A stretch of DNA of 64,000 nucleotides from Verrucomicrobiota bacterium (GTDB lineage: Bacteria; Verrucomicrobiota; Verrucomicrobiia; Opitutales; Seribacteraceae): the NCBI GenBank assembly GCA_027622665.1, contig JAQBYT010000007.1, positions 32,001 to 96,000 of the forward strand, given 5' to 3'. The notes beneath the pieces are model-generated. The model searched no databases. It was not told where the DNA came from and saw only the letters and a program-made list of their open reading frames with translations. The position numbers and the translations under genes are program-made. Below, in pieces: positions 7,831-55,200 of this stretch; the stretch's first letter is position 1; every line of letters begins with the position of its first letter.

Positions 7831-8898
7831 ATGAGGTTTAGTAACCCTAAATTAATCGTCACTCTAATTGCATTTGCCTTTTCTTGTGTAGGAGACGCGA
7901 GGACGAGAGCCGATCTCGTGCCCGAAGACACTTTGTTGATCGATCTTGTTACGGGCAGGGTAGTGATCGAAATGTTTCCCGCCGTCGCTCCCGGGCACGT
8001 TGCCCGCATTCGAGAACTTGCTCGGTCAGGTCTTTACGACGGGGTTGCTTTTCATCGGGTGATCGATGGTTTTATGGCGCAGACGGGAGATGTGAAATAC
8101 GGAAACGTAAAAAGTAACTACAACCCATCCCTCGTCGGCACGGGAAACTCCGACTTAGCCGATCTGGCCGCCGAGTTCAATGAGCTCAAGCATTTTCGAG
8201 GAACGGCATCGATGGCGAGGTCTCAAGATCCCAACAGTGCGAACAGTCAGTTCTTCATTTGTTTTTCCGATGCCACTTTTCTTGACGGACAATACACCGT
8301 TTGGGGGCAGGTGGTGGAGGGGATGGAGCATGTGGATAAGATTGAGCGAGGAGTTACCGGCAGCGGTGCCGTGGGGAATCCCGATTCGATGGTCAAGGTG
8401 ACGGTCGCCTCGGATACTGTTTTACGGATCGACGATAATGCTTCGGCAGGTGGCGACGGTACTTCGTGGTCCAAGGCGTTTACCACTTTGTCCGACGCAT
8501 TGGACGCGGCGGGCACCGGATTTGAGCTTTGGGTTGCAGAAGGAGAGTACCGTTTGACGGGATCTCTCGAGTCGCGTTTGAAGAACGAAGTAAAGTCTTT
8601 CGGAGGTTTCAAAGGGACTGAGCTGATTCGAACTCCCCTAGGCGAAGCCAATGCCACCCGGTTGGTGGATGCCCTGCCCATCCAGCCGGTGGATAGTAAC
8701 GCCTCACCTCATACTTACGGATGGTACTTCCAACCTGAGTGGGGCTGGATCTGGACCAGTGAGAAGACCTTCCCTTACGTTTATTTGGCGGGGGGCAATG
8801 GTCAGGGAGCCGGTTGGTTGATGTTTCGCGAAGGTTCGGCTGCCCCCGTTTACTTTTATAGTTTTGCCGAGAAAAAATGGGTGACTCTAGGAGAATAG
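7831..8898 (+). CDS. Secreted cyclophilin-type peptidyl-prolyl isomerase with C-terminal extension
   Basis: Signal peptide; FHRVIDGFMAQTGD, SMARSQDPNSANSQFFI, LDGQYTVWGQV; then a DGTSWSKAF...LWVAEGEY segment and an aromatic C-terminal module. Confidence 0.9.
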   Translation: MRFSNPKLIVTLIAFAFSCVGDARTRADLVPEDTLLIDLVTGRVVIEMFPAVAPGHVARIRELARSGLYDGVAFHRVIDGFMAQTGDVKYGNVKSNYNPSLVGTGNSDLADLAAEFNELKHFRGTASMARSQDPNSANSQFFICFSDATFLDGQYTVWGQVVEGMEHVDKIERGVTGSGAVGNPDSMVKVTVASDTVLRIDDNASAGGDGTSWSKAFTTLSDALDAAGTGFELWVAEGEYRLTGSLESRLKNEVKSFGGFKGTELIRTPLGEANATRLVDALPIQPVDSNASPHTYGWYFQPEWGWIWTSEKTFPYVYLAGGNGQGAGWLMFREGSAAPVYFYSFAEKKWVTLGE

Positions 8899-9093
8899 AA
8901 AGCCGAGTTTAATCGAGCGAGTCGCAAGCTCCAGAGGTGTAGAGGATTCAGCGAGAATTATAGATATTCATACTTGGAAATCCTACGAATATCCAAGGTA
9001 TGCAGGTTGACATTCAGGATTTACGCGCCCATCTCTTGGAGTAATTGGCAGGTTTACTCTCGCCACCATTCTCAACTTCCAAACATACGAATT

Positions 9094-9930
9094 ATGACTC
9101 GAAACCTATCAAGACCTATTTTAGGGTTCCTTACTATTGCTTTGTTTTTGAGCTCTCTCGCGGGTGCCACCAAGGTTCTTTACGTTACGCACGAACCTGG
9201 CAGGTGGCACAAGTACACCGCGCAAAAGAAAATTTTCGCCCAAATTGCCGAAAAGGCCGGCTGGGAACTGACCGTCATGACGGGCGAGCACGAACCGCAG
9301 ATTGCCAAACTGCGCACCCCCGACTTCGGCAAGGGATACGACGCCATTGTCTACAACTTCTGTTTCGCAAAGAGCAGGGATATTGAAGCTCAGGCCAATT
9401 TAGTTGCTCAGACTAGAGAACACGGAGTCCCCGCCATGCTCATCCACTGCGCCATGCACAGCTGGTGGCCCACTTACAGGGACGGCAAGCCGGGAGCAAT
9501 CGGCCCCGCTTACAAAGGGAATGCAAAGGCCGATCCCGCTCTTGTCGCCGAATGGAAAAAAAAGCATGGCGACAAGCCGTTTCCCGCATGGGGCGACTTT
9601 ACAGGTGTGGCTAGCGGCCGTCACGGTCCTCACCAGCCCATCAAGATGATCAAGGTGGGCAACCATGCTGCGACCAAGAGCTTTCCCCAGGAGTTCACCA
9701 CCGGTAAAACCGAGCTCTATAACAACATTTACAAGTTAGATGCAGTGGTTCCTCTCATCGAGGGCGTCCAAGGAAAAACCAAGGCCACCGTTATGTGGCT
9801 CTGTCCTCAAGGGAAGTCTCAAGTCATGGGACTGACCGTAGGGCACGACATGGGCGATTGGGCCACCAACGAGTATCGGGGGCTGATCACCGATGGCGTA
9901 AACTATCTGGTTCAGCACCCGAAACCATAA
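9094..9930 (+). CDS. ThuA-like (class I glutamine amidotransferase-like fold) exported protein
   Basis: Start moved to ATG 9094 (MTRNLSRP, signal peptide); KVLYVT, YDAIVYNFC, LIHCAMHS, ELYN, GLTVGHD. Confidence 0.75.
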   Translation: MTRNLSRPILGFLTIALFLSSLAGATKVLYVTHEPGRWHKYTAQKKIFAQIAEKAGWELTVMTGEHEPQIAKLRTPDFGKGYDAIVYNFCFAKSRDIEAQANLVAQTREHGVPAMLIHCAMHSWWPTYRDGKPGAIGPAYKGNAKADPALVAEWKKKHGDKPFPAWGDFTGVASGRHGPHQPIKMIKVGNHAATKSFPQEFTTGKTELYNNIYKLDAVVPLIEGVQGKTKATVMWLCPQGKSQVMGLTVGHDMGDWATNEYRGLITDGVNYLVQHPKP

Positions 9931-10020
9931 CTGGGTTGCGTCCTCTTGGACAACCCCTCCGCTGTTCTTCGGGGTTTACTCCAGCTTTTCTACTTATTCT
10001 AAACTCCTGCAATCATCCTC

Positions 10021-11325: not shown

Positions 11326-11428
11326 GCCCTCGAACTGCTTTTCAGGCTACGCTCTAGGTCGCCGCGGAGTGACCCGAATGAGCCTGAATTGTAATTTTAG
11401 GCAAAAGGCTAAATACTCTTTTACCCAC

Positions 11429-11457: not shown

Positions 11458-11465
11458 AGGATGGC

Positions 11466-13307
11466 ATGTCAGATAGCTCCATCACCTCGGATCGCATCCG
11501 AAATATTGCCATCATAGCGCATGTCGATCACGGCAAGACTACTCTCGTCGACCAAATGCTGAAGCATTCCGGAGCCTTCCGGGAAAATCAGGTATTGGAG
11601 GATCGAGCCATGGATTCGATGGACCAGGAGCGTGAGCGAGGCATTACCATCAAGGCAAAAAATACATCGGTGAGGTGGAAGGACCACCTCGTTAACATCG
11701 TAGATACTCCTGGTCATGCCGATTTCGGAGGAGAGGTGGAGCGTGTTATGAAGATGGTCGATGGCGTCATGCTAGTGGTCGACGCCTATGAAGGTCCGCA
11801 GGCTCAAACTCGATTTGTTTTGAAAAAAGCCTTGGCCGCTGGCCTTACCCCGATCGTCTTCGTAAACAAGATCGATCGACCCAACGCTCAACCGATCGAA
11901 GTACAGGATAAAGTTCTCGAGCTCTTTCTCGATCTTGATGCCAGCGATGAGCAATTTAATGCACCTTTTCTCTACGGCAGCGCCAGGGACGGTTTTACAG
12001 TCAAGCACCCGGATGATTCTCCCGAAGGTATGACGCTTCTTTTCGAGACCATTCTATCCACTATTCCCGCCCCCGCGATCGAAGAGGGTGGGGCATTCAA
12101 GATGCTTGTGTCGAATATCGATTGGTCCGACTACGTGGGCCGTATCGCAATTGGTAAGATCCTCTCCGGATCAGCTGTTATTGGTGATGCCGTTTGGCGT
12201 TTGCACTCTGACAGGGCTCCTCAGCGAGGAAAGATTTCAAAAGTATTCGAATACACTGCCCTTTCCTCTCAGGAAACATCCGAAGGCGTTGCGGGGAACA
12301 TCGTAGGAATTTCCGGTTTCGAAGACGTCGACATCGGTGAAACGATTGGAGGGAACGAGGAGATTGAACCCATACCTTTCGTCGAGATCGATCCTCCCAC
12401 GGTGATGATGTCCTTTTCGGTGAACGATGGTCCCTTCGCCGGATTGGAGGGTGCTCGCGTCACCTCACGTGAAATTCGCGAACGTTTAGTACGCGAAGCT
12501 CGCACAAACATTTCCATTAAGTTGGAAGACACCGACAATGCCGTAGAGTTCAAGGTCAGCGCGCGTGGGGCTATGCAGGTCGCGGTCGTTGTTGAAGAGA
12601 TGCGCAGGGAAGGTTTCGAGCTACTGGTCTCTCGTCCCACCGTCATCAAGAAGCAGATCAACGGCAAATGGCACGAACCTTTTGAAACCGTCTACTTGGA
12701 AGTCCCCGACGAAGCCGTCGGGGGATGCATGCAGGCACTGGCCAACCGTAAGGGGTTGGTTGAGAACATGTCTTCCAAGAATGACCGCACATCTCTTGAG
12801 GCGACGATTCCCACCCGCGGCTTGATTGGTTTCGAATTTGAACTGCTCAACCTCACCAGTGGAGAGGGAATCATGTCCCACTTGTTCAAGGAGTATCGCC
12901 CCGACAGCGGTGACATCCGTACTCGTCGCACAGGCACTTTGGTTTCCTTGGAGAAAGGCGAGTGCATGACGTACTCTTTGCACAACATGGAAACTCGCGG
13001 CAAACTTTTCATAGGCCCCGGCGACCAGGTGTACCCCGGCATGGTAGTGGGAGAAAATCCTCGCACCGAAGATCTTCCCGTCAATCCGACCAAAGCCAAG
13101 CACGTTACCAACCATCGGGCTGCAGGCAGCGACAACACCGTTACCCTTACGCCTCCCATCCGATTTTCCTTGGAACGCGCCATCGAGTACATCGCCCCCG
13201 ACGAACTGGTGGAAGTCACTCCCAAAAGTATTCGTCTTCGCAAACACCTTCTCGACTTCAACGAACGGAAAAGAGCCACCAAGCGAGCCGCTCTTGCGAC
13301 TGTTTGA
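11466..13307 (+). CDS. typA: Translational GTPase TypA/BipA
   Basis: [65 protein letters not shown]. Confidence 0.97.
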
Positions 13308-22074: not shown

Positions 22075-23334
22075 TCATTCTTTTCGGAGGGGGTGCCCGA
22101 TGGCGTGTTCTAGGGCGAGGTGAGCGGATTGAAATTGGTATCTGGCCTCGAGGAGTTTGCGACGGACTTCGAAGAGTCCGATGCGAAGCTGGTTTCGTGA
22201 GACAGGATCGATGCCTTGCCCATTGGGGCTTTCCTCGAGGGCAGGAGCAAGCTCGCTTTCGAGGTTTACAGAGGAGATTTCGTGCTCGGCGAGTTGCCGC
22301 GATGCGGCTCGGTAATCACGTAGAGCGCTGGCGAGTGTCAGTCGGAGGTCACGGCGAGCAAGGCGTTGGATAGCGAGATTTTCGTGTAATTCGGCGGTGG
22401 CGGCTTGAATGTCGGCCCGATGTCCCCACATGGGAATCTCTATACCGAGGAGGACGCCCCATTGGTCGGAGTCGGATGAGATGCGCCGATCATGTTCGAT
22501 ATTACCTTGAAAGAAGGAGAACCAAGGGATACGGCGAGCCTCGGCTTGTTGGATACGGGCTCGGGCGGCTTCACCTTCATGTTCGAGTGAGATTAGCTCG
22601 GGGCGTCCCAGAGTGGCAGTTGGAAATAGGTTATTTAGGGTGAGATTGGAGGTGTTTTCATCTGGTTTGGAGAAAGAGGTTACTAGATTTACGGGTGTGC
22701 CTTCGGGTTGGGCGAGGAGTGCGAGTAAGGTGGAAGAAACGCTTTCGTAGGTTCGATCAGCTTTGGAAGCCACGGCGAAAGTTTTGTAGGTCTCTAGTCG
22801 ACTTTCAAGAGCTTTTGGGAGGGTGAGTTGGCCTGCGGCGACAAGGATGTCGTGGGCTGTACGGATGGCCGCTTGGGTTTCGGCGATTTCGTGGGCGAGG
22901 AGTGCGTCTTTTTTTCGATAAAGAGTTTCAAAGTAAAGCCGCTTGACCTCGTAGGAAAGGATGTTTTCAGTCAGCTTGAGTTCTATGCGTGCGACTTCGA
23001 TTCGGGCTTGGCCTTCTTCCACCAGAGCCTTTGTTTCCCATGGGTTGTTCAGTCGAAAGCGTAGGGCATATTCTTGGCTGGATTCACCTGCGAGACGACC
23101 CTCGTCGTGGCTAAGCCGAAGCTCGGGGGCAGGCATGGCGCCGATGGCGCGAAGGCGGGCGCGGACGGATGCTATGCGGGTGCGAGGAGCATCAAGATTT
23201 TCGGTGTTATTCCTCGCCAGTTCGAGGGCTTGTTCAAGTGAAAGATTCCGAGATGCGTTGGCATCTTGGGCGTGACCGAGTGGTGCGGAAAAAATGAAGA
23301 ATGCGAAGATTGCTGCGTGTACGAGACCTTTCAT
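22075..23334 (-). CDS. TolC family outer-membrane efflux protein
   Basis: Start moved to ATG 23334 (MKGLVHAAIF..., signal peptide); LSLEQALELA, RPELI, QWGVLLGIEIPMW, LEHAIG; long helical segments. Confidence 0.8.
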   Translation of the reverse strand: MKGLVHAAIFAFFIFSAPLGHAQDANASRNLSLEQALELARNNTENLDAPRTRIASVRARLRAIGAMPAPELRLSHDEGRLAGESSQEYALRFRLNNPWETKALVEEGQARIEVARIELKLTENILSYEVKRLYFETLYRKKDALLAHEIAETQAAIRTAHDILVAAGQLTLPKALESRLETYKTFAVASKADRTYESVSSTLLALLAQPEGTPVNLVTSFSKPDENTSNLTLNNLFPTATLGRPELISLEHEGEAARARIQQAEARRIPWFSFFQGNIEHDRRISSDSDQWGVLLGIEIPMWGHRADIQAATAELHENLAIQRLARRDLRLTLASALRDYRAASRQLAEHEISSVNLESELAPALEESPNGQGIDPVSRNQLRIGLFEVRRKLLEARYQFQSAHLALEHAIGHPLRKE

Positions 23335-23342: not shown

Positions 23343-24461
23343 TCAGGAACCCCGGAGGAAGCCGAAAAAACCTATCGAGGTGGTTTCGATGACGACCCAT
23401 TCGCCGGGGACGAAGGCATCGTGATCTTGGCCCGTGATGGAGCGGAGTTGGATGTTGCGTCCGCGAGCCATGCGATTGGGGGCGTTGCGGACGCGCCCGG
23501 GGAAGTTGAGTATGTGAGGGGTAACGGAGACGACCTCCATTCGGATTTGGGCAGAAGGGTTGGTTTCCGAGTATACGACTAGTTCGTCGCCAACGGTGGG
23601 TTGAAGGTGGGCGAAACGTTCGGGTTGAAAGCCCATTACGCGTTTCACTTCCTTACCGTTGGCAGGATCGTACTCCTTAATAATAAGGCGGGCGATTGGT
23701 TCTCCGGCGGGCACGTTTTCGCCTCTTTGGAAGGAGAGTTCGGCTACTACGCCGTCGTTGGCGGCTTTGAGAAAGCAGTGCTCACGACGTTGCTCTAGGA
23801 GAGCGAGGCGGTTGTTGCCGGGTCGTTCGATTGTGTGTACTTCAGCGAGGCGTGCGATGGAATCTTCCAGGTCTGCCTTTACTTTAGAGATGAGCGAGGG
23901 ATGCATATCCCCTCGCTTTGCTAGGACGGCGATCTTGGCCTCGAGTTCACTCACGATTTCTCGGTCCACTAATCCTCGCTCAAGCAATCCTTTCAGCCGT
24001 TCGAGTTGACGGGATAATATGGCTATTTCGGCGGAATCGGAGGCTTGGTCCATGAGAAGTTCGCTAACATCTACGCGAGTGCTTTGGACGGCCGAGGTGA
24101 AGCGACGATCGCGATCGAGACGGTCGAGCTCTAGTTCTTCCTTGATTGAGGCGATTTGTTTATCGATAAGGCTTGTGTCGAGGACGATGAGGAGATCTCC
24201 GCGAGTTATCTTCTGGCCGATTGCGACCTTTATGTCCTCGATGCGTCCCACTTCGCGACTAGAAATGGACTCGAAGTCAAATTCTACGGTTCCGTTTAGT
24301 TCATAATATCCGCCCCCAAATTCGTAAAGGGCGAAGAGTGCGGGAATGAATAGAAGCCAAACGAAAAGAGGCCACTTCCTGCCGATGCGTCCGAGGCTAC
24401 TGCCGCGGTGACGTTTCGGGGCAGGTTTTAGAGATACTGAAGCCGTTCGTTCGTCAGGCAT
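23343..24461 (-). CDS. HlyD-like membrane fusion (periplasmic adaptor) protein
   Basis: Single N-terminal TM, half-lipoyl motifs GRIEDIKVAIGQKITRGDLL and LKAANDGVV...GENVPAGEPI flanking a coiled coil. Confidence 0.82.
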   Translation of the reverse strand: MPDERTASVSLKPAPKRHRGSSLGRIGRKWPLFVWLLFIPALFALYEFGGGYYELNGTVEFDFESISSREVGRIEDIKVAIGQKITRGDLLIVLDTSLIDKQIASIKEELELDRLDRDRRFTSAVQSTRVDVSELLMDQASDSAEIAILSRQLERLKGLLERGLVDREIVSELEAKIAVLAKRGDMHPSLISKVKADLEDSIARLAEVHTIERPGNNRLALLEQRREHCFLKAANDGVVAELSFQRGENVPAGEPIARLIIKEYDPANGKEVKRVMGFQPERFAHLQPTVGDELVVYSETNPSAQIRMEVVSVTPHILNFPGRVRNAPNRMARGRNIQLRSITGQDHDAFVPGEWVVIETTSIGFFGFLRGS

Positions 24462-38100: not shown

Positions 38101-41100
38101 GATCCGGACGATTGCCGTGGTCGATACCACGCCCCCCATTCTAGCTCTCATAGGCTCGCCCTCCGTTCAGCTCTTTCTCGGTTCAACTTTCATTGATCCC
38201 GGAACCGTCGCAGTTGATGCTTTGGATGGCAATCTTACGAACGACGTAGTTATTTCTGGCGTGGTGGATATAGACGTAGCTGGATTCTACTCGCTTCATT
38301 ACAATGTAAACGATGCCTCGGGGAACGGAGCTCAGACGGTTTCTCGAACCGTTACAGTTGTTGGCATCCCGCCGCCTGTTATCACCTTGCGGGGCGGGGC
38401 TACAGTTGTTCTTGACGAGGGCGAACCATATGCAGAATTAGGTTTTTTCGCCGAAGATTCACTGGACGGTAATCTGACTGCGACCGTTGTGGTTGGCGGG
38501 GACACGGTGGATGCAAACCGACCCGGTTCCTATTTCGTGACCTACGACGTGATGAATTCTAGGGCAGTAGGCGCCACCGAAGCCATCCGCAAGGTGATCG
38601 TGCGTGACGTCACAGCGCCAGTTCTCACTTTGTCAGGTTCGGACGCAATCGTTCACGAGGTAGTTACCCCTTTCTTTGACCCTGGAGCCATCGCCAACGA
38701 TGTTACCGATGGAAACCTGACTGGGATCATTATTGTAGGAGGTGATATTGTGGACAGCAACCATTTAGGTCTCTACACTATCACCTACGATGCTTCCGAC
38801 AAGGCGGGCAACTTTGCCGCAACTCTAACCCGTACCGTAACGGTCAGGGATGGCGCCGCTCCCGTGGTTACCCTCCTCGGTGAGTCGAACGCCACCCATG
38901 AAGCCGGAACACCCTACCATGACTTTGGAGCAACCGCCTACGACGCCTTCAATGGAGATCTTTCCGACGCCATAAGTGTTTCAGGGGATGTCAATGCATT
39001 CCAGCCTGGACTCTATTTTCTCACCTACTCCGTTTCGGATCCGGCGGGCAACGTCGGGCAAGTCGTTAGAGTGGTTAATGTTGTCGACACCATGCCGCCC
39101 GTCCTCAAGTTGCTCGGCGAACTTAATGCGACTTTCGAGGCTGGGTTCGGTCTAGGATCCCTCGATTTCAGTGCTGTTGCTCAAGACATTTTGGATGGGA
39201 ACCTAACAGATTTAATCATCGTTTCGAGCAATGTGAATGACCATGTCCAAGGAGATTATGTTATCGGTTACTCAGTTTTCGATAAGGCGGGCAATGCTGC
39301 TCTCCCTCGGGAACGTATCGTTCGTATTAGGGATACTCTACCTCCTGTCCTTAGCATCTTTGGGGGAGAGGAGATCACCCTCCAACCAGGTTCCCTCTGG
39401 ATCGACCCCGGCGTGGCAGCCTTCGACCTTGCGGACGGCAACTTAGCCGACAATATTCTCGTTCTTGGCGCGGTGAACGTAAATAGCATCGGTGACTACG
39501 AGCTAAGCTACTCGGTCTCCGATAAAGCGGGGAACGCCGCGTTCACTCTCACTCGTCTCGTCAAGGTTCTCAGCTTGGCATCACCCGTCATTACCCTGCT
39601 CGGGCCCGATACGGTTACCCTCGACCAAGGCACTGCCTTTGTGGATCCCGGATTCATCGCCCAAGATCCGTTCGACGGCAACCTCACCCACCTTGTCCGA
39701 TCCTACGACAATCTCGACGTGAGCGTGCCCGGCATCCATCATATCGCTTATTTCGTGACCAACGCTTCCGGACTTTCCTCTGAGGAAGCTGTTCGCACGA
39801 TTATCATAAATGATCTTAATGACGCACCAGCAACCAATGGCGTCGAAGCCTTCTTCTCCCCGATACGCGAAGACATAGGAAGTGGAGCCGAAAATACCGG
39901 CGATACGGTATCCTCTCTTGTTGAAGGTATAACAGATCTCGACTCCAATGCAGTTTTCGGCTTCGCCCTTGTCGCAATCGATGATTCCAACGGTACTTGG
40001 CAATACTCTCTCGACGGAGGCAAAGCTTATTTCTCAGTCGACGACATTACTCAAGCCAACGCCCTCCTTCTACATGCAGACGATCCAAAGACTCTTCTTC
40101 GGTTCGTACCACGGAGCGAATTTTTTGGTACAGCCTCACTCACCTTCCGAGCTTGGGACCAAACCGTAGGTGCCAATGGAGAACGTTTTACTATAGTTGA
40201 AACTGGTGGTCATTCCGCATTCAGTTCGGATGTTGCTCTTGCTGCTATCAAGATCGAGCCTTCGCCTGACTCACCTTTCTTCACTACTCACCCCATTCTG
40301 CGCGGCAAGGCTCTTTCGAACTACTCCTACACTGTTACTGTCATTCATCCGGACGGCGAAGACTTCAGCCTTCATGCCGTCGCCTTGCCCCAATGGCTCT
40401 CCTTCGAGTTAAACGCAGACGGTTCAGCTACTCTTACTGGTATACCCGCGGTTGGAGACGTGGGTGCTCATGCCGTTATCCTGAAAGCTACCGATGCATC
40501 GGGCAAATTTTCGGAGCAAAGCTTTGCCATCGCCGTGTCCTCAGGCAAAGTCTTCGATCTCGAATATGGTTGGAATGGGCTCGACTGGTTCGGGCAGTTC
40601 TACGTGTCTTCCAAAACTTGGATCTACCATCCCAACCACGGTTGGCTTTTCCCCGGAGAAAAAGCAGGAAGCAATGAAGAGGGCATCTGGTTTTGGTCGG
40701 AAAGCCTTGGCTGGCACTGGACCCGCGAGGACGTGTACCCCTATCTCTATATTCGCCGCAGACAACGTTCTGCCCAAGACGTATATCGTACCGACGAACT
40801 CTTTACCGCATTTGGCTGGTTCTTTTATCAACGGGAATCTCATCACCCCCGCTTATTCTTCGACTACGAGATACACGATTGGATGGCGGAATCGCGCTTT
40901 GCTCCAGTCCTTGTAAATGCCAATCTTAACGACTCTCGCGGTGGCATTGTGACAGGTGCCGGTTATCATGGACACGGAGATGCAGTCACTCTCGTTGCCG
41001 AGGCGAATTCAGGCTATAAGTTCTTGAATTGGAATGGGGCGATACAAGGCGAATCCCCCTCCCTCACTTTTACCATTACACGAAACATTTCCCTGACTGC

Positions 41101-41152
41101 CAACTTCGAGAAACTTTCCGATGAGGAAATTCTTGAAGGGGTTTTCGATTAA
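26174..41152 (+). CDS. Giant secreted multidomain protein: 2x GH13 alpha-amylase, InlB-B-like repeat, LTD, LamG, CotH kinase, 3 more LTD, Ig-like domains incl. 9 DUF5011-like repeats, aromatic C-terminal module
   Basis: Uninterrupted 4992-aa ORF with signal peptide. GH13 motifs DGLRLDAVKH/FGEH/QSHD and DGLRADFGQG/MSEA/VSHDE. LTD starts ISEFMASN, ISEIMYNP (x2), ISEILTH. LamG LLAHWSFDEG...GKVDDLRVY. CotH RIRGGYSR...LYLNGVYWGIY...DNLIDY...NNYY...HDMEHSL. Confidence 0.92.
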   Translation: MNKTSNSWIRRLIVVLACASTLIPRLSFGEAMLQYFNTSWAEITNRMPELAEAGYSSLWLPPPTKGSGRLSVGYDLWDPFDLGGREQRGTFQTRYGTEAELHRLIEMAHRFGIRVYFDNIMNHRAFDVPGYNEHAPEDLYPGMRPEDFHIRRTSDGLYRKWDNVREWWSEWQVQNLGLSDLIDIAAEPGTTNRNFGDREGATAEKIKFLRHPDNPEFYCYDANGSYVGFGQDNGLTVEYLAQNEAFYSEYVEVYLNRAARWLLDRTKADGLRLDAVKHIPADFFGATFGADRDRSNYGYLGQAQEQFNLTRGFSDWDNHRDTVFDTERPRDDAMMFGEHLGSPPAVDDYINAGMRLLDNDLRHHLNSQLGNPFGTLAGMDASGSHGFAPGSSVMHAQSHDSDYAARRELQHALYLTRGGIGIIYSDGNHKAGILKESGGAFPRHANTNFLGQFGDNRIPNLLYFHEHFVRGFQVGRWSDGDVVVYERVDKRDNPGMSDAAGTVGLVMINDNYSSGQARGFTTGFLAEGGTDNDVYLYNYSSYGGGFFKYASQLNQVVIPAGGYFLFSWRSPEPSDLWGLAGGHPLSILQDGEEVETISVRRTDGPDGDPAFNPYGVSDANQTDFSYLWKIPRVTSGKNLKFVVRADGSAENMLLNIDGGIDVNGNGKRDNPPAFSSDVYLGFEQMDFVGRQGPEKFAAGDTSRNMIGSAGAETYWWSADNGSFFTVNGGSGDDSYEDETAHWAYHAPEQNNDQGEKQFKVAESSATVWVKVGYNLEVNQARLYHVIDGSNPEGAGGGGIGTTQVTSFAFSHSDGQEPTVDWWKATVPLPDSGIFKYKIGVYRNELNGASLASVFPKNESAVALKKKMLTSFEIDGFDAEAIEYYPHRDYGDKVTGLKEGFHFVKARAFLSRLGEASIYNTFSRTLYYDTKRPEGTVNFPGRDGEELFGSEYGFVVRTDSSVTEVLFHIDDDDPTNDDGQIGALNGNGETGDGNSSAWASAVEITSRQNLGVGFPKEWRFSYRNVPSGGGEATVRIALREASSSTDLTLNEEEGHFRILDRKVKTSGPSHRLFVTWPQQDGEKVGQDYLMKTYLSSGLVDGRSDAEVIANLTVSIDDSVTQEAPYAPAVAQDISSAWVERNVTPGLAALAYKLPILRNPAGAPDDFRQTIIVDYQDSVAGVDLRTIRTVATDFVSHGSANPILTVNGVPADYTTTNFFVDEVKGDEETLEIVLEAPHVIVAEVYTNLNNRDLATGDSNEDGIEDGIQPPNRNSVSLDNNAGYYKVHAMTLDPARGEAGAWVCQLKARKTGAYRLTARFKLKDDADVWHWYTSEGRRDHAVVVTPKAAREAIMYELNPLSVDATGDTFATRSTFEDLHDENRWNLEYLKGIGANWLWFQPIHPRGIDGREIVNGQPYDPGSPYAVKNFFEVMPQLSEANTRPAAMQAFQDFVMAADSEGIGVMVDAPFNHVAWDAELDEEGVAIFETGVPDDEIRKTLPGFFSRKDDYGLPARDENEIATAPDRDDFGKWEDVKDVYFGNYSALVRGNDPAERNPHQNEEDVFDYAGEGWNDQTRRTWRYFASYVPYWLEKTGLPAGQPASVQAQTGIDGLRADFGQGLPPQLWEYVINVARSRKWSFVFMSEALDGGAVTYRSSRHFDVLNENLVFAQQSLTTPDGYRSAFENRRSAYGQSLLLLNNVSHDEENYQDPWQAFIRYASSSVNDGVPMLFMGQELGISRTYGFTHYETNMGKQIPHFKIHNSMQPIWDNGDFGLDQLYKAYASIGRARSASPALSSSYRYFLNEIITNAPHDKINATAKWENSVSSPSTSDLVLAFVNLDRDNQQSGAFDLSPSGDEALLGLEKDHLYNVSNLAAFQTEAKDVFLWPQARSGHDLLENGIFVLLNPVPPDAGGWTNAPYEAQFLKVHDLSVPLLEMNASTGGSTKGSGSYSYGSHVNIEATAEPGYAFDGWLGGGVVNPSATHTTISMTEPRSVTATFRYVGDPGNMPTISEFMASNDKTLFSASGDSDDWIEIHNPGTNSIDLSDWYLTNDPANRTMWRFPDETTLGGNDRLVVFASGLGSAANAGGSLTRASDLLAHWSFDEGSGTLAADQSGNNHDITSIGGATWTDGKFGKAFSYDGGSTALPLAAHPPASGTEFSISFWSYGDPAKLPGKNTSIIESSGPSGRILNIHFPWSNGNVYWDAGNGGSDRINTAIADNYLWGNWSHWVFVHNRTTGDQKYYLNGSAKMSASGRTRQLGTVDRWYLGSDRNGNSSYWYGKVDDLRVYGVELSGSDVESIYRENPWRTHTTFKLDASGGYLALIKGDGTVGKIVNYPKQEEDYSYGMPSNQVIPSDSYLKLATPGKENEEGFLGFVADTKFNVDRGFFETPFTLSITTATSGATIRYTTDGSAPSASYGNVYVAPFAISTTTIVRVIASKPDYVTTDVDTQSYFFPEDVIRQSADGFTPVGWPATGAVNNQQMVYGMDPDIVTGFNTPVEVKEALLALPTLSIATELDNLFGQSNGIYVNAGNDGRSWERPMSLELINPDGSKGFQIDAGMRIRGGYSRSTSNPKHSFRIFFRSEYGQSNLHYPMFEDEGVEEFDKFDLRTSQNYSWAFGGPANNTMVREVWSRDTQSAMGHPYTRSRYYHLYLNGVYWGIYMTQERVSGTLGESYLGGDKDDYDTVHQDNSKQINATGGNLEAYDRLWQRTIDGWTDNDDYFQAQGLDVDGKASNPDFENLLDVDNLIDYMLIVYYNGDRDGPASRYTTPRVNNYYAFYNRANPDGWKFPAHDMEHSLGRGENNMVTPLASDHQDRDEKKYFTAHFLHEQLTSNQEYVIRFADRFYLRHFNDGVLSEENAKARIAFRSSQIDKAIIAESARWGDTKSGIPKNRNDWVNNVKMVTNWMTGRNAVVLNQLRTTRINASSSFWYPSIDPPGFSQHGGQVGSSFRLSMADPNMAPVAIHYTLDGSDPRLVGGTISPVAQVAQSSGIQNTLLLDAGVPAKAFVPTNDSWGSAWYQPGFDDSAWQSGSSGVGYDTATTYRSLFGIDVLSSMLNKNTSVYCRVPFIATNSTEFTNLTLKMKYDDGFVAYLNGTKVASANAPSNPAWNGKSTSSHSDSAAQQYISFDLTPHLAHLREGVNILAVHGLNVSTDSSDMLIVPRLEASRLVGGTEIALPHHLTHVKARTRTTLGEWSALHEATFQVDVVPAAGDNLLISEIMYNPSGTGGSEYVEVRNVGPFRIDLTGVTLGGAFDDFTFGSLTLASGESAVVVQDVAGFNARYLDPVSPYYAPGIVVAGQWPEGKLNNGGEMIALTDVKGADILTFQYDDGGNWPNRTDGRGSSLILPNPTSLAGMTLAERNVYLADGDNWKSSTGFHGNPGTAEVTGTGTPPVLISEILTHTDSPLVDAIELHNPSSQPVDLSGWRLTESSSSLQGFRIPDGTVIAPSGYLVFDETDFNPNGLWNPNAGPRGSDEFALSGARGGDIWLIEADGAGNLLAFVDHVEFGASLNGVSFGRWPNGSAGKLYPMKERSLFDEATGTYPPQKRGGPNPGAMRGQIMISEIMYNPPDGNVDLEFVELYNSSNSSVSLSGWDLDRGVDFTFSAGTLLKPGQSLVVVGFDLNATEKLTAFRLAYGIGPEVVLVGGWQGKLNNGGETISLLRPDAPPADDPTYTPMVIEESVTYSNLPPWPIQADGNGTSLVRSKRDSWSDDVQSWANSTGTPSPGPSSSLNNPPTFTSEFPTAKIAVGALFSHRFVASDPDGNILSFSSPSTPFWLNFRDEANGSAILWGNPPPYVVGAHTVVVEVSDGIADPIEKIFVLTVEDQTSPILTLRGAANLVHEAGTLYVDPGVIAVDAVDGDLSTKVKVVNPVNISNPGTYVVSYSVSDQVGNEAMALSRTVVVADTKPPVMDLIGGVALTHEGAITFTDPGAYAFDILDGNLTTKITVTGVVDVNVTGTYQLTYGAIDDANNSATPVIRTIAVVDTTPPILALIGSPSVQLFLGSTFIDPGTVAVDALDGNLTNDVVISGVVDIDVAGFYSLHYNVNDASGNGAQTVSRTVTVVGIPPPVITLRGGATVVLDEGEPYAELGFFAEDSLDGNLTATVVVGGDTVDANRPGSYFVTYDVMNSRAVGATEAIRKVIVRDVTAPVLTLSGSDAIVHEVVTPFFDPGAIANDVTDGNLTGIIIVGGDIVDSNHLGLYTITYDASDKAGNFAATLTRTVTVRDGAAPVVTLLGESNATHEAGTPYHDFGATAYDAFNGDLSDAISVSGDVNAFQPGLYFLTYSVSDPAGNVGQVVRVVNVVDTMPPVLKLLGELNATFEAGFGLGSLDFSAVAQDILDGNLTDLIIVSSNVNDHVQGDYVIGYSVFDKAGNAALPRERIVRIRDTLPPVLSIFGGEEITLQPGSLWIDPGVAAFDLADGNLADNILVLGAVNVNSIGDYELSYSVSDKAGNAAFTLTRLVKVLSLASPVITLLGPDTVTLDQGTAFVDPGFIAQDPFDGNLTHLVRSYDNLDVSVPGIHHIAYFVTNASGLSSEEAVRTIIINDLNDAPATNGVEAFFSPIREDIGSGAENTGDTVSSLVEGITDLDSNAVFGFALVAIDDSNGTWQYSLDGGKAYFSVDDITQANALLLHADDPKTLLRFVPRSEFFGTASLTFRAWDQTVGANGERFTIVETGGHSAFSSDVALAAIKIEPSPDSPFFTTHPILRGKALSNYSYTVTVIHPDGEDFSLHAVALPQWLSFELNADGSATLTGIPAVGDVGAHAVILKATDASGKFSEQSFAIAVSSGKVFDLEYGWNGLDWFGQFYVSSKTWIYHPNHGWLFPGEKAGSNEEGIWFWSESLGWHWTREDVYPYLYIRRRQRSAQDVYRTDELFTAFGWFFYQRESHHPRLFFDYEIHDWMAESRFAPVLVNANLNDSRGGIVTGAGYHGHGDAVTLVAEANSGYKFLNWNGAIQGESPSLTFTITRNISLTANFEKLSDEEILEGVFD
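37645..39810 (+). repeat. Nine tandem ~80-aa DUF5011/HYR-like Ig repeats within the giant protein
   Basis: Repeating P-x-I/L-T-L-x-G...DPG-x2-A-x-D-x2-DG(N/D)L(T/S)...G-x-Y-x3-Y-x-V-x-D-x2-GN...R-x-V-x-V. Confidence 0.85.
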
Positions 41153-48398: not shown

Positions 48399-48411
48399 GA
48401 TCGATTCGGAA

Positions 48412-49479: not shown

Positions 49480-52041
49480 ATGAGTGACAAGGAACTCAAT
49501 ACTTCGCGTTTCAGGAGAGTTTGCCTACGGCTTCTTCTCGGCATCTTCCTATTGCTGGTATGCGGTTTGTCGATCCTATGGTGGCGTTTGCCGAGATTGC
49601 TCGAGCATTATACTGCGAAAGAGGCTGAAGAGGTGGGTTTTCATGAGCCGACAGTCGTTATCGAGCAAGTCGATGTTTCACCTAAGGGTTCTTCCATAAC
49701 GGGTCTTCGCTTGTCGGATGATAAAACGGACCTGACTTTAGCCAGACTGGCTGTTGCCTACGATTTGGATAAAGTCCTCGATGGAGTGGTCGAAAAACTG
49801 GAATTGTTCGACCTTCGCCTTGTATTGGATATGCAAGCGTGGGTCGAAGAGTTGACCGAACCTTCCTTAACCGATGAAACCATCGAGGAACAAATTCGTT
49901 TGTTTTTGGAGCAGCCCGCCTTCCGGGATCTCCAACTTCATGACGCGAACGTTACCTTGAATTATGGCGATTCTCAAGGTCGTGCTCGGGTCGATGCACG
50001 CCTGTCGGCAGGATCGAGTTCAATCAGCCTAGACATCAATGGTTCTATCGGAGAGGCGCCTATTTCCGTTCTGGCCGGCTTTGTTGCTGACGAGAATGCT
50101 ACTTCGTTGAGTTCTCATTTTGGTTTTGCCGACCTAGTCGCCTTGAAAAAGGCAATGGCTACGTGGTCATTGCCATACGAGCTTGATGGATTTTCGCTTT
50201 TGAGCGGTTTCGCTTTGATCGAAGGCAAGGCAGGCATTCGTGGCGATTCCCTGGTCTCTCCCTCATTCGACGTAAATGCCGGCGACCTTTCTCTTACGGC
50301 ACTGGGGCAAACCCTGCGAATCCCCCACTTGTTTATATCCGCCTCGGAAACCGGTGACGGGAAGTGGAAAATAGATGCAAATGGGACAACCGAGGCAAAC
50401 GCCACGGGCATAGGCGAGAACTGGGCTGTCGAGGCTTTCCTTGATTCCAATGCCTGTGAAGCTACTCTCAGCGTGGATCAATTTCATACATTTGCCCCCT
50501 TGCCGACAATGACCTTGAGCCAACTGCGTCTGCCCCCATGGCGAATTTTATATGCCGATCCTACTCGACTTCCTCTCGGCGAAAGTAAAACCCTTCGGTT
50601 TGACGACTTCTCTTTCACCGAGGGAGACTTTGTCTTCAATCTCTACGAGGGGGAGCTTACCGTTGCTTTTCCCGAGAGTGGGGAAGCCTTTGGCGTGCAA
50701 CTCGCTCCTACTGATGCAGTCCTTCCTCTGCAAGGCGTCGTTTTTCGTAACTTTTCCTACACGGGAGTGGTCGAACCTTTCCGCGAACCCTACCTGTCTT
50801 TTCCGCAAAGAATTAAGGGTGACAGCATCATTCTTGGAGAGGAATCGCTCGTCTCCAACGTTGCGTTGTCGTTTCACCTCCTTGACCTGAGCAAGGGGTT
50901 CGTTGATTCGTTGGCTTTCACTTTCGACGGTTCCGTCTACGAACTGAATCCTGCCAAGCTCACCATTGAGCAATTCGAGAATGGAAGCGTGTCCATCGAC
51001 CTTAATGCTACCACCTTCCATATTCCCGACCTTCCCGTAAAAGTGGAAGGTGTTAGGGGCGAAATCACCCTCTCAGCCATTGATCCCCTTTCGACTTCAG
51101 GTTTTCAAGAATTGTGTTTCGACGCCGTTCACTACGGGGATAGCGAGGAAGCTCTCGTTTCCGATGTTGCGTTGTCGTTTCACCTCCTTGACCTAAGCAA
51201 GGCTATGGTTGATTCGTTGGCTTTCACTTTCGACGATTCCTCCTACGAACTGAATCCTGCCAAGATCACCATTGAGCAATTCGAGAATAGGAGCGTGTCC
51301 ATCGACATTAACGCTTCCACCTTCAATGTACCCGATCTCTCCGTAAAAGCGGAAGGTATTAGGAGCACAATTACTCTCTCTTCCCTTGATCCAGTTGTTA
51401 CTGCGGGTTCTCAAGAATTGCGTTTCGACGCTATTCGCTATGGAGACCTTTCCCTCCTCGACGTTCGCCTCCTGTTTTCTCTCGAAGCCAATGGAACCTT
51501 CGCACTCCATGACGGGAATGCCAGCTTATTTGGCGGCGAAGTCGTTTTCGAACCGACTCGCTTTAAGTTGGAGGACAAAGAAAAGAAATTGGCCATTCGC
51601 TTGCGTGACGTCGACGGCAGTCGAGTTGTCGCTCTCCTCAAGAAGTTCGACGGTGAAATCGAAGGAAAATTCTCAGGGCTGATCCCTCTGAGCAATCGAG
51701 ACGGAGCATGGGATTACGTCGGAGGTTATCTCGAACTTAATCCGGGGACTCCCGGCCGTCTTCGCTACCGTTCGGATGGCATTCTTACTTCCGACATGAA
51801 ACCGGGGTCAGCCGAATTCAAACGATTGCGGCAAGTTGAGGTGGCGCTTAAGGACTTGGACGTGAAATATCTTCGGCTTGATTTTCTGCTTGAAGATGAG
51901 CAGAGGCGAATCTTGGGCGACGTTCAAGGCAAATCTCAGATCGATAAAAAAACGACTATAAACCTTGATTACCGTCCCAAGATTCTTGCCGGATTCGATG
52001 AACTTCTTCAATTGGACTCCAAGGCTTTCGGGCTGGATTGA
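49480..52041 (+). CDS. YdbH-like intermembrane lipid transport (AsmA-like) protein
   Basis: N-terminal TM, long beta-rich periplasmic region, C-terminal LFGG...IEGKFSGLIPL...GRLRY...ALKDL...INLDY; followed by YnbE- and YdbL-like genes. Confidence 0.72.
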   Translation: MSDKELNTSRFRRVCLRLLLGIFLLLVCGLSILWWRLPRLLEHYTAKEAEEVGFHEPTVVIEQVDVSPKGSSITGLRLSDDKTDLTLARLAVAYDLDKVLDGVVEKLELFDLRLVLDMQAWVEELTEPSLTDETIEEQIRLFLEQPAFRDLQLHDANVTLNYGDSQGRARVDARLSAGSSSISLDINGSIGEAPISVLAGFVADENATSLSSHFGFADLVALKKAMATWSLPYELDGFSLLSGFALIEGKAGIRGDSLVSPSFDVNAGDLSLTALGQTLRIPHLFISASETGDGKWKIDANGTTEANATGIGENWAVEAFLDSNACEATLSVDQFHTFAPLPTMTLSQLRLPPWRILYADPTRLPLGESKTLRFDDFSFTEGDFVFNLYEGELTVAFPESGEAFGVQLAPTDAVLPLQGVVFRNFSYTGVVEPFREPYLSFPQRIKGDSIILGEESLVSNVALSFHLLDLSKGFVDSLAFTFDGSVYELNPAKLTIEQFENGSVSIDLNATTFHIPDLPVKVEGVRGEITLSAIDPLSTSGFQELCFDAVHYGDSEEALVSDVALSFHLLDLSKAMVDSLAFTFDDSSYELNPAKITIEQFENRSVSIDINASTFNVPDLSVKAEGIRSTITLSSLDPVVTAGSQELRFDAIRYGDLSLLDVRLLFSLEANGTFALHDGNASLFGGEVVFEPTRFKLEDKEKKLAIRLRDVDGSRVVALLKKFDGEIEGKFSGLIPLSNRDGAWDYVGGYLELNPGTPGRLRYRSDGILTSDMKPGSAEFKRLRQVEVALKDLDVKYLRLDFLLEDEQRRILGDVQGKSQIDKKTTINLDYRPKILAGFDELLQLDSKAFGLD
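50839..51447 (+). repeat. Tandem in-frame 306-bp (102-aa) duplication inside the YdbH-like gene
   Basis: Copies start at 50839 and 51145 and share long identical stretches such as gttgcgttgtcgtttcacctccttgacct and gttgattcgttggctttcactttcgacg. Confidence 0.95.
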
Positions 52042-52107
52042 ACAACATTCTGTTTTTTTCCAAAATCCAGTTGCGCGGAAGCCTCTTCCACGAGTAAGTT
52101 TTATTCC

Positions 52108-52311
52108 ATGCTATCAACTACGCGATTGTCTTTCATTTTTGCTGTCCTCGCATTCGTGGGTTGCACGACCATTAAGACTGAACACCACATTACCCTCGAC
52201 CACAACATCACCATCAAGATCGAAAAGGAAGTGAACAGTTTCTTGGACGACCTTTATGGGGATTTAGATACTGAGGAAAACAATGCCGAAAACGGCAAAA
52301 AACCGGAGTGA
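52108..52311 (+). CDS. YnbE-like small lipoprotein
   Basis: Lipobox FVGC; ITLDHNITIKIEKEVNSFLDDL; position between ydbH-like and ydbL-like genes. Confidence 0.75.
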   Translation: MLSTTRLSFIFAVLAFVGCTTIKTEHHITLDHNITIKIEKEVNSFLDDLYGDLDTEENNAENGKKPE

Positions 52312-52315
52312 GACC

Positions 52316-52687: not shown

Positions 52688-53223
52688 CCACGAGAGCGGT
52701 AAATCGAAAAGTTGCAATATCATCGGCTTTTTTTCTTCTGTTAGGGTTCGGTTGCCGCAATTCTCCTTATGAGCAGTTTGCCTTTGGCGAGCCCGTCGTC
52801 TTGAGAGAAGACGCCCCTTTAGTTCGTGAAAACCTAACTGACACTCAATCCATTCTTAACGATTCTCGCCGCGAGGTGGATATGGCCCGTTTGCGGGTGG
52901 AATGGCTTTCCGCAGAAAAAAACTTGGCCGATGCCCAACTGGTCGCAGCCGAGACTCGAGAGCGGCAAGACGGTTTAGCCGTTAAATATGCTCGATTCCT
53001 TGAACTGGATGCCCGTGTTCCGGGCGACAAAGGGCCTGTAGCTCCCGAAGTCATGTCGGTGTGGGAGAACAAGCTTCGTCAATATGCGGCCCAAACGGCT
53101 CGTAGCGAGGCAAAGGTGCGTTTGTCCTTGCGTCGAGTCAAACCTCTGCGCCAAAAAGCTATGGTTGCAGGACTTCTTGCGGATAGGCCGCAAACCGTTC
53201 CGCTAGAAGAAAACGAACCTTAG
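52684..53223 (+). CDS. Hypothetical lipoprotein
   Basis: GTG 52684 overlapping the upstream stop; lipobox LLGFGC; coiled-coil body. Confidence 0.65.
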   Translation: MTTRAVNRKVAISSAFFLLLGFGCRNSPYEQFAFGEPVVLREDAPLVRENLTDTQSILNDSRREVDMARLRVEWLSAEKNLADAQLVAAETRERQDGLAVKYARFLELDARVPGDKGPVAPEVMSVWENKLRQYAAQTARSEAKVRLSLRRVKPLRQKAMVAGLLADRPQTVPLEENEP

Positions 53224-53258
53224 GACTTTTCTTCGGGAGTGCTGGCGGGAGTTGTACA

Positions 53259-53546
53259 ATGGACGAGGTGTGGGAAATCATTAATCACATAGGGCAGGAA
53301 CCACTCCTGCTCTGGTCTGCTGCAGTGTTGTCTGTCTTTCTTCTCGTGGGTATTTTGAAGCGAGTGCTTTCCATTATTGTTTCTTGTGCGATTTTGATCA
53401 TTCTATACCTCGTGTACCTTACTTATTTTGAGGAAGAGTTCCCCCTGCCCGAGGCAGACGTTGGCGAATGGATAAAGATCGGTGAGAATTGGCTCGACTC
53501 CAAACCCGAGCGGGTTCTCGACGACAACGAGACCACTTCCGAGTGA
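53259..53546 (+). CDS. Hypothetical small membrane protein
   Basis: Two TM segments and an acidic C-terminus. Confidence 0.65.
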   Translation: MDEVWEIINHIGQEPLLLWSAAVLSVFLLVGILKRVLSIIVSCAILIILYLVYLTYFEEEFPLPEADVGEWIKIGENWLDSKPERVLDDNETTSE

Positions 53547-53583
53547 ACAACTGCCGGACCAATAGCTCATCTTTACAGGCCAA

Positions 53584-55200
53584 ATGAAGTTACCTTGGGC
53601 TTTTTATCTTTCTTGGAAGCATCTGTTTCCTACGGGACGAGGTGTTTCTTTCTTTTCGGTTCTTTCCGTTTTTGGAGTGGCCTTGGGGGTAAACGTCATG
53701 ATCGTCGTTGTCGCCTTCATGAATGGGTTTCAGGATAAGTTCCGCACCGACATAATCGATTCCCAAGGACATGCCCGGGCGGAAATGTCATACGGTTCCT
53801 CCGGCGACTGGAAAGACGACATGGCGAAACTGGAGTCTCAACCTAAGGTGCAAGCCGTAGCCCCTTATCTAAATGGACACTTGCTCTTGGAGCATTTTGG
53901 CAATCGCGCCGTCCCCCTTGCCATGGGTGTGGATCCGATTCGAGGAGATGCGGTGATACCCGTTTCAGAATTTCTAGCAGAGGGTTCTCCCAAGATGCTG
54001 GCCGAGGAAGCTTTCCAAATCACCCCTCTTCCTGTTGTCGACGACCTCCAAGACGACGTCGTATTCCTGAGCCGACAGGCTGCGCATAAATTGGGAGCCC
54101 ATCCCGCCGCAGCCATTTTGACTGTCGATCACAATTCCAGTTCGATCAGGGCGGGCAACGGAACAATCGTTCTTCGTAAGCTTGACCCTTTTGTTGAATC
54201 GGGAACTTGGCAAGTGCGTTTTGAAGACAATGCAAGTTATCGCATTACTGATCCCTATGATGAGGAATGGGAAGATCTTTTTTTAGTGACGGAGAAAAAC
54301 GAGAATCTTGGGGAAGGGATTCCCGTATTCGAGATCACGCCCGGTTCGACTCCCTTTGCCAAGGGCGACCTGTTCACCTTTGAGATATTCGGGGCCTCCG
54401 TCATCGACGTATACTCTCCCGCCATGTTGCAGAAAGCAAAGAACGATGAATTGTTGCCTCCGCGTCAAGTGAGAGTCGGCGGCATTTTCGAGGTCCCGTG
54501 GCAAGGCTTTCACTTGGATGCCCTGTTCGGTACACTTCGGTTCATGCAGGAAATGAACGACCAAGCGGGCGTTGTTCACGGGTTCAATCTCAAGTTTGTC
54601 CCCGAGGTTGCATCCGACACGCAAGCGTTGGCCGATGCCTGCATGAACATCCGCTCCTCCTTGGGCGAGAATTGGAGTGTGGTTCCATGGTTCGTGGAGA
54701 ATGCCTGGTTTTTTGATCTTCTAAAATTCGAGGAGTACCTCATGGTGCTGATCATGGTTCCCATTGGTTTGGTCGCAGCCTTCGCGATAGCTATAGCTCT
54801 TATGACTTCCGTTGTCCGCAAGACCCGTGAAATCGGTTTGCTCGTGGCCATGGGTGGTTCTCGTCTTTCGGTCGGAACGGTCTTTACCATGCAGGGATTC
54901 GTCATCGGACTGTTGGGGACTGTCGTCGGTTGGGGGATGGCCCTGCTCTTCATTTGCTACAGGGATACTCTCATGAGCTTCATCGTGCGCAACATTGCCG
55001 GTGAGGAAGGCGGTGCAGGGGTGGCTCAGTTCTATGACTTCTACAGCTTGAACGTTCCCTATCCGTGGGATTCCGCCGATAGTTTGCAGAACTTCCTTAT
55101 ATTTGGAGCCTTTGCGGTGGGGGTCTCCACCTTGGCTGGGTTTTTACCTGCTTGGAAAGCGGCTCGCCTCAACCCTTCGGAGGCTTTGCGAAGTGAGTGA
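53584..55200 (+). CDS. LolC/E family lipoprotein-releasing ABC permease with periplasmic insertion
   Basis: SVFGVALGV...FMNGF, VRKTREIGLLVAMG, PAWKAARLNPSEALRSE; 538 aa is longer than the usual ~400 aa. Confidence 0.88.
   Translation: MKLPWAFYLSWKHLFPTGRGVSFFSVLSVFGVALGVNVMIVVVAFMNGFQDKFRTDIIDSQGHARAEMSYGSSGDWKDDMAKLESQPKVQAVAPYLNGHLLLEHFGNRAVPLAMGVDPIRGDAVIPVSEFLAEGSPKMLAEEAFQITPLPVVDDLQDDVVFLSRQAAHKLGAHPAAAILTVDHNSSSIRAGNGTIVLRKLDPFVESGTWQVRFEDNASYRITDPYDEEWEDLFLVTEKNENLGEGIPVFEITPGSTPFAKGDLFTFEIFGASVIDVYSPAMLQKAKNDELLPPRQVRVGGIFEVPWQGFHLDALFGTLRFMQEMNDQAGVVHGFNLKFVPEVASDTQALADACMNIRSSLGENWSVVPWFVENAWFFDLLKFEEYLMVLIMVPIGLVAAFAIAIALMTSVVRKTREIGLLVAMGGSRLSVGTVFTMQGFVIGLLGTVVGWGMALLFICYRDTLMSFIVRNIAGEEGGAGVAQFYDFYSLNVPYPWDSADSLQNFLIFGAFAVGVSTLAGFLPAWKAARLNPSEALRSE

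Follow-up and report, generated by a model that had tools for sequence, protein, structure and literature searches.

The stretch analysed here, hereafter the window, comprises 64,000 nucleotides (G000:C22:32001-96000) of a 4.5 Mb, 93.5% complete genome of the family Seribacteraceae, order Opitutales, and encodes exported and membrane proteins in which Asn residues often stand in D/E-x-N-x-S/T, the extended sequon of the Campylobacter oligosaccharyltransferase PglB. An earlier examination of the window by its letters only (the sequence-only reading) had proposed from these sequons a general N-linked protein glycosylation system in the lineage. We have followed the sequon through the genome and its relatives, together with a PglB-type enzyme encoded on another contig. 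The signature is restricted to exported proteins, it co-occurs with PglB in two families, and its three residues are co-conserved.

Among the 23 window proteins classed as exported or membrane-bound by our own hydrophobicity heuristic, rather than by SignalP, 38 extended sequons are present where local 25-residue shuffles give 7.3 +- 2.8, and none of 500 rounds reaches 38; the 17 cytoplasmic proteins hold one against 2.3 expected. Every sequon named in the sequence-only reading was located (Table 1), its counts for the YdbH-like protein and for TypA stand, and its estimate of about 18 for the giant protein was slightly off, 19 of 57 N-x-S/T being extended, with a concentration in the stalk as it had said. 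It was also right that the window lacks an oligosaccharyltransferase gene, which lies instead at G000:C43:2660-5920(-). One of the YdbH-like sequons, ELNTS at residue 7, is upstream of the N-terminal membrane anchor and probably cytoplasmic, which leaves 9 of 12 N-x-S/T as plausible extended acceptors. All three cyclophilin sequons are C-terminal of the peptidyl-prolyl isomerase (PPIase) domain (residues 41-190), and the giant protein combines alpha-amylase, LamG, LTD and CotH kinase domains with nine immunoglobulin (Ig)-like repeats. At 10083-11325 of the window a Gfo/Idh/MocA-like oxidoreductase is apparently broken into three open reading frames (ORFs).

Table 1. Window genes encoding proteins with extended sequons, and TypA as cytoplasmic control (positions in the window)
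Feature	Position	Strand	Extended sequons
HflC (Band 7) protein	3837..4832	+	ERNGS 4308-4322; extended in 1/3 N-x-S/T
Exported cyclophilin	7831..8898	+	DDNAS 8431-8445, EANAT 8644-8658, DSNAS 8692-8706; 3/3 N-x-S/T extended
TypA/BipA, cytoplasmic control	11466..13307	+	4 N-x-S/T, 0 with acidic -2 residue
TolC-family outer-membrane efflux protein	22075..23334	-	DANAS 23251-23265, DENTS 22648-22662; 2/5 extended
HlyD-like membrane-fusion protein (weak Pfam matches)	23343..24461	-	ELNGT 24288-24302; 1/1 extended
Giant 4992-aa surface protein	26174..41152	+	19, of which 14 in residues 3500-4700; 6 of these are DGNLT on an Ig-fold motif
YdbH-like intermembrane lipid-transport protein	49480..52041	+	10/13 N-x-S/T extended, spanning 49492-51525
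Small predicted lipoprotein (YnbE-like by gene order and by the sequence-only reading's label)	52108..52311	+	DHNIT 52198-52212; 1/1 extended
95-aa two-helix membrane protein (no Pfam match)	53259..53546	+	DDNET 53520-53534, in C-terminal tail; 1/1 extended
LolC/E-type ATP-binding cassette permease	53584..55200	+	DHNSS 54127-54141, EDNAS 54223-54237; 2/4 extended

The extended sequon across the genome and its relatives

A hexamer model called 3448 genes in the source genome. A first pass returned a 2.9-fold excess of extended sequons in exported proteins and a 1.9-fold excess in "cytoplasmic" ones as well, the latter a false excess: of the 454 sites in this set, 245 fell in 15 proteins, mostly pieces of giant surface proteins truncated at contig edges. 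The main test was restricted, for all classes alike, to complete ORFs of 200-1500 aa. Against composition-matched shuffles, exported proteins (n=859) carry 396 extended sequons where 211.7 are expected (1.87-fold) and membrane proteins (n=217) carry 77 against 27.5 (2.80-fold), whereas the 1032 cytoplasmic proteins show no excess (190 against 185.6, 1.02-fold). The proteome-wide shuffle comparison that the sequence-only reading had suggested thus gives an excess in exported and membrane proteins and none in cytoplasmic ones. Lipoprotein-like proteins are enriched 2.78-fold (47 against 16.9), and the 35 proteins above 1500 aa hold 590 sites against 95.1 (6.2-fold). No excess is present in proteins with a twin-arginine translocation (Tat) motif, as defined by our own regular expression (n=115; 23 against 21.4), in c-heme proteins (45 against 50.4), or in a motif-defined set of cytoplasmic P-loop proteins (n=45; 9 against 9.3). 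The 55 proteins with a sulfatase motif have fewer sites than expected (4 against 11.2), as if chance sites were selected against.

The signature depends specifically on Asn, on the acid at -2 and on S/T at +2. Among exported and membrane proteins, S/T occupies +2 in 500 of 2474 Asn with D/E at -2 and in 1958 of 16448 others (odds ratio 1.87, p 2e-27), compared with 212 of 1583 and 1462 of 11783 in cytoplasmic proteins (p 0.27). D/E is found at -2 of 20.4% of N-x-S/T and at 10-12% at eight other offsets, there is no such peak around Q, D, H or G centres, and N-x-S/T without the acid is not enriched (1873 against 2034). Within the sequon Ala is raised over background 2.4-fold at -1 and 3.0-fold at +1, and Pro is about halved at both.

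The enrichment recurs in other genera of the family (20 stretches from 9 genomes: 2.73-fold exported, 2.83-fold membrane, 1.13-fold cytoplasmic) and is absent outside it (40 stretches from 19 genomes: 0.79, 0.78 and 0.69). Each of the 12 family orthologues of YdbH holds 4-10 sites, whose positions shift from one to the next; six distant non-family homologues hold none or one each, amounting to a single site among 23 N-x-S/T. Every family LolC/E sequence contains a periplasmic insertion, about 95 residues long, that none of 19 from other Opitutales has; it harbours both sites of the window protein. LolC/E sequences with at least one site number 8 of 13 within the family and 2 of 19 outside it. 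Among sequons whose Asn persists in other-genus orthologues, 41 of 43 retain S/T, compared with 57 of 85 controls (p 3e-4), and 41 of 43 retain D/E, compared with 88 of 112 (p 0.015). At least one position has changed in 32 of the 39 retained sequons. Within the genus, in one relative, the S/T effect alone is significant. Divergent loops, insertions and proteins specific to the family are where the sites cluster. At the DNA level, the counts of coding patterns for DANAT and ADNAT are 100:8 in the family (11 genomes), 106:36 in a second verrucomicrobial family (14 genomes) and 42:49 in 21 controls; these counts, which alone carry the signature in the second family, are blind to frame and localisation, their family sets include five genomes with no PglB match, and the DANAT pattern was picked after seeing the preference of the source genome and a five-genome pilot.

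The PglB-type enzyme and its distribution

A PF02516 search of the genome, which follows another suggestion of the sequence-only reading, returned one gene, the one on contig C43, whose 1086-aa product scores 71.9 bits for PF02516 (cut-off 24.5) and 74.7 bits for PF21436 (cut-off 23), that is, an STT3 membrane domain followed by a periplasmic core. Its only sequence matches in the PDB are Campylobacter PglBs, the closest being that of C. lari. The AlphaFold model (mean per-residue confidence, pLDDT, 92.5; predicted template-modelling score, pTM, 0.91; 148-row alignment) best matches 5OGL, 6GXC and 3RCE (E about 1e-30, template-modelling score 0.71-0.73 by target), with STT3 and AglB structures at E 1e-7 to 1e-11. 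Catalytic and metal motifs were placed by alignment with C. lari PglB, the EL5 stretch by the 148-row alignment instead. The motifs are intact (THD123, YYD225TD227, TIRE451, R529 and WWDYG630-634), and D123, R218, D225, D227, E451, R463, R529 and WWD are invariant in the 90 family-like alignment rows. R463, 12 residues past E451, occupies a column that is Arg in 90/90 family-like and 55/58 other PglB rows, and both column and spacing suggest that it is the equivalent of C. lari R331. An Arg of the R331 type contacts the acidic -2 residue in C. lari, as the text of PMC4894442 and PMC12229607 describes. After R463 a C-x-C-x-x-C insertion is present in about 69 of the 90 family-like rows and in 0/58 others, and the protein ends in a C-terminal extension with a LysM-like segment, which exceeds the Pfam LysM cut-off in one relative (35% identity to that of the source genome). 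In some database records family members already bear the label of an STT3-domain or a glycosyltransferase protein. Contigs of RNA libraries from four studies overlap parts of pglB at low depth in 4/4 runs, and, DNA carry-over being possible, hint weakly that the gene is transcribed.

The gene is preceded by those of a 573-aa coiled-coil membrane protein and a 764-aa polytopic protein with about 2-4 sequons (L002:5979-9984(-)), kept in 57 and 51 of 61 loci, which may be partners of the enzyme. Directly downstream lies an FG-GAP repeat protein (L002:3-2435(-), on C43) that ends in a tandem array of DGNFTDPG and has 43 sites up to the contig end. Contig C57 begins with the same repeat (L263, G000:C57 end), so C43 and C57 are maybe neighbours; in one same-genus relative a DDGGYQS repeat devoid of sequons stands at the corresponding place. 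Phosphoglycosyl transferases, which occur in most bacteria, were matched in 20/20 family genomes searched, and a small PglC-like gene (frames of 209-234 aa) in 8/20. One such locus of the source genome (G000:C13:36.6-40.2 kb) combines a dehydratase, a LegC-family aminotransferase and a small phosphoglycosyl transferase, and resembles a surface-polysaccharide locus.

PglB is present in 31 of 36 other family genomes, in all five genera and with the frame intact in nearly all, and was matched in 0 of 24 genomes of other Opitutales families, 19 of which supplied the non-family stretches that lack enrichment. The family belongs to the marine Opitutales; the 61 loci of the genome scan bear titles of Opitutales, Opitutia or Verrucomicrobia, and one of them is titled Ca. 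Chordibacter forsetii, Ca. Seribacteraceae in NCBI. A PglB profile gave three weak matches in 400 genomes of the phylum and two strong ones in 400 of the class, both from the one second family, in which 21 of 31 genomes have PglB. One second-family PglB shares 82% identity with a cluster that includes Limisphaerales- and Verrucomicrobiales-labelled members; 80 loci from a metagenome scan served solely for two identity checks. Some second-family PglBs occupy frames of 1604-2429 aa in which the match is split by long inserts (G521:C36:67162-70563, G749:C4, G768:C157), and one genome (G763) has two full-length copies. PF02516 also gave 28 mostly weak matches in the 400 phylum genomes, none of which matched family PglB by tblastn and three of which have WWDNG instead, so they were left out of the PglB count. 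In another class, one genus (L004, L005 and L006, from G359, G077 and G155) has an STT3-like protein with WWDNG and no match to family PglB, by its sequence a different type of putative oligosaccharyltransferase in the phylum. In an unrooted tree of 37 rows a branch with support 100/100 separates family PglBs, Limisphaerales- and Pedosphaera-labelled rows and ten unlabelled rows from Arcobacter- and Myxococcales-labelled ones; an attempt to name a donor lineage failed, the tree being unrooted and most neighbouring rows unlabelled.

A model for N-glycosylation and the alternatives to it

We propose a model that most reasonably fits these observations. The genome pairs a PglB gene with sequon-enriched exported and membrane proteins, and therefore glycan transfer onto Asn is likely; we hold it highly probable that the PglB-type enzyme glycosylates the Asn of D/E-x-N-x-S/T in exported and membrane proteins in the manner of Campylobacter. 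Genes located elsewhere in the genome would direct the assembly of a glycan on undecaprenyl pyrophosphate, the glycan would be flipped, and PglB would transfer it from the lipid to Asn in the periplasm, mainly on chains exiting the Sec translocon, with R463 binding the acidic -2 residue of the acceptor. Transfer during Sec export is suggested because the Tat-motif class shows no excess. Under selection, envelope machines (YdbH, LolC/E, SecG, SecDF, YidC, LptA, TolC and PPIases) would have gained acceptor sites in their loops and insertions, where the glycans may stabilise or shield the proteins, and tens of sites on giant surface proteins would produce a dense glycan coat.

The site-rich proteins of the genome fit such a distribution. 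They include SecG (in its C-terminal tail), SecDF, YidC, MotA/ExbB, NfeD, LptA and an FKBP, whose clusters fall mostly within segments predicted to be periplasmic, as well as an M16 peptidase and surface proteins of the cadherin/Ig/RCC1 kind, which hold as many as 80 sites. The YidC (L342:170-2263, G000:C55) has a C-terminal DnaJ-like domain matched by Pfam at cut-off. A Trp/Tyr-rich domain about 50 residues long, located as a rule at the C-terminus, occurs in 35 proteins genome-wide, among them the window cyclophilin (8720-8895), the giant protein (about 40690-40885) and many sequon-dense surface proteins, all of which it closes. It had no Pfam match in the proteins scanned, its neighbours in the ESM Atlas are clusters bearing no name (<0.9), and it is a candidate surface-anchoring or sorting signal. 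Going further, and with rather less than even confidence, a Verrucomicrobiota-associated clade of PglBs, in this family with the Cys cluster and LysM-like module, may build a mucin-like N-glycan coat on giant surface proteins with 15-80 sites each, some of the sites in tandem DGNFTDPG arrays and many of the proteins ending in the Trp-rich domain; few known bacteria would then be as heavily N-glycosylated as these widespread marine glycan degraders, and the sequon excess could reveal active N-glycosylation in uncultured lineages from the genome alone.

Several observations weigh against the proposed model. Glycosylation itself, the activity of PglB included, is something we infer from sequence. 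Sites are present in 258 of 1076 exported and membrane proteins, about 24%, and in 158 of 1032 cytoplasmic ones; the general system of the sequence-only reading accordingly keeps the support of enrichment and enzyme, and "general" must be limited to that quarter. A Rossmann-motif "cytoplasmic" set (n=25), which includes Tat-type proteins, has 10 sites against 4.5 expected. The sequon Asn is conserved no better than other Asn, no enrichment is seen in exported proteins whose conservation extends beyond the family (2 sites in 44 pairs, against 5 in the relatives), and genus g187 keeps the LolC/E insertion with no sequons in it and has few DANAT patterns (0-2 per genome). As kin are not independent, the effective base of the cross-genome contrast is two lineages. 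The enzyme scores 196.6 bits against the NCBIfam PglB equivalog NF050801, whose cut-off is 1300; the system would work like that of Campylobacter but stands outside strict membership. A conserved Arg does not guarantee the -2 rule, since the PglB of D. gigas has the Arg and is nonetheless relaxed, as reported in the text of PMC4894442. Lastly, pglB lies outside any pgl cluster and adjoins two membrane-protein genes bearing no name, no glycosyltransferase or glycan gene was recognised among its conserved neighbours in the 61 loci (mostly by eye, with two upstream genes profile-scanned), the exported-class proteins flanking it are not enriched (28 against 33.4), and none of the several lipopolysaccharide (LPS)- or exopolysaccharide (EPS)-type loci and three phosphoglycosyl transferases in the genome is assignable as its donor pathway.

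Some of these observations could be read as those of an active PglB that serves mainly a few giant surface proteins, in the manner of an S-layer glycosylation system, the sites of envelope machines being largely incidental. The 590 sites on 35 proteins, the 818 exported and membrane proteins that have no site, the conserved exported orthologues that are not enriched and the 43-site repeat protein immediately downstream of pglB all speak for such a restriction. We consider it unlikely: proteins of up to 1500 aa still carry about double the expectation (560 against 249), YdbH retains its sites throughout the family, and the clusters in SecG, SecDF, YidC, MotA/ExbB, NfeD, LptA and FKBP are mostly on the predicted periplasmic side. 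A slightly poorer prospect is that the signature is a relic, or that PglB attaches a non-dedicated glycan, such as O-antigen or capsule repeat units, with no general pgl-like pathway behind it. Catalytic residues invariant in 90 family-like sequences, a frame intact in nearly all genomes and, weakly, the RNA-library contigs of four studies over parts of pglB argue against decay, and a borrowed donor would count as N-glycosylation all the same; the lack of a pgl cluster around pglB, the LPS/EPS-type loci with their three phosphoglycosyl transferases and the patchy PglC-like gene are what this alternative would explain.

It is very improbable that the motif is a structural or compositional by-product of Asx turns, of the Ig motif D-x-x-D-G-[D/N]-L-T or of acidic low-complexity linkers, unrelated to glycosylation. 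Such a by-product exists, for N fills the variable position in 38 of 180 occurrences of the Ig motif across 52 distant homologues, which show a slight overall enrichment (104 against 83), and six of the 14 stalk sites of the giant protein are DGNLT. The giant protein, however, has N in 6 of 7 of its Ig motifs against the 21% of the homologues, its stalk retains 8 sites once DGNLT is removed (1.3 expected for all sites), the genome stripped of all D-G-N sites retains 488 against 237, and the excess is absent from non-family genomes and follows PglB in two families. A structural origin is thus largely refuted as the main cause and accounts for a minority of sites in Ig repeats. Glycosylation by the PglB-type enzyme remains the most rational explanation for an excess that is tied to Asn, to export and to the presence of the gene.

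Comparison with known systems

The bacterial PglBs characterised so far belong to Campylobacterota, Desulfovibrio and Deferribacter, according to the text of PMC6025236 and PMC12229607. Full-text literature searches, to which subscription papers are mostly closed, found no paper on verrucomicrobial PglB or N-glycosylation, and the text of PMC4973528, as distinct from its tree figure and supplements, describes no verrucomicrobial PglB. A family-wide system, if true, would extend PglB N-glycosylation to the Planctomycetes-Verrucomicrobia-Chlamydiae (PVC) group and to bloom-associated plankton. The MB11C04 family is presumably Ca. Seribacteraceae, the family of Ca. Chordibacter. Proteins of MB11C04 were detected in a public North Sea metaproteome (PXD019294) reported in PMC8857213, in the available text of which the word "glycosylation" is absent. 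For glycoengineering the lineage supplies a divergent enzyme that has additional modules, and, because its sister families have neither enzyme nor sites, it is also a natural experiment on the role of N-glycans in envelope machines.

As in the pgl system of Campylobacter, the extended sequon is found on periplasmic and membrane proteins, here as a statistical signature, and the predicted substrate classes overlap the periplasmic, inner-membrane, lipoprotein, outer-membrane and efflux proteins that the text of PMC9816155 gives as the Campylobacter glycoprotein classes. The verrucomicrobial enzyme differs from the PglBs of C. jejuni and C. lari (3RCE, 5OGL and 6GXC) in its length of 1086 aa against about 710, its 22-23% identity in structural alignment, its C-x-C-x-x-C insertion and its LysM-like extension; it belongs to another phylum, its gene stands outside a pgl cluster, and surface proteins reach 80 sites. 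The separation of pglB from glycan genes places the system near those with a scattered or orphan pglB (H. pullorum, Desulfovibrio, vent Campylobacterota and Deferribacter). In H. pullorum the pgl genes occupy five loci in the account of PMC6025236. Several Desulfovibrio PglBs have relaxed -2 specificity, as described in the text of PMC4894442 and PMC12229607, in contrast to the source genome, where N-x-S/T is enriched only with the acid. Archaeal AglB and eukaryotic STT3 have their fold superfamily in common with the enzyme, and dense modification of surface proteins is predicted here as well; they are, however, more distant than PglB (10-15% identity, E 1e-7 to 1e-11 against 1e-30), and theirs is the short N-x-S/T sequon, whereas the sequon enriched in this family is the extended one of Campylobacter.

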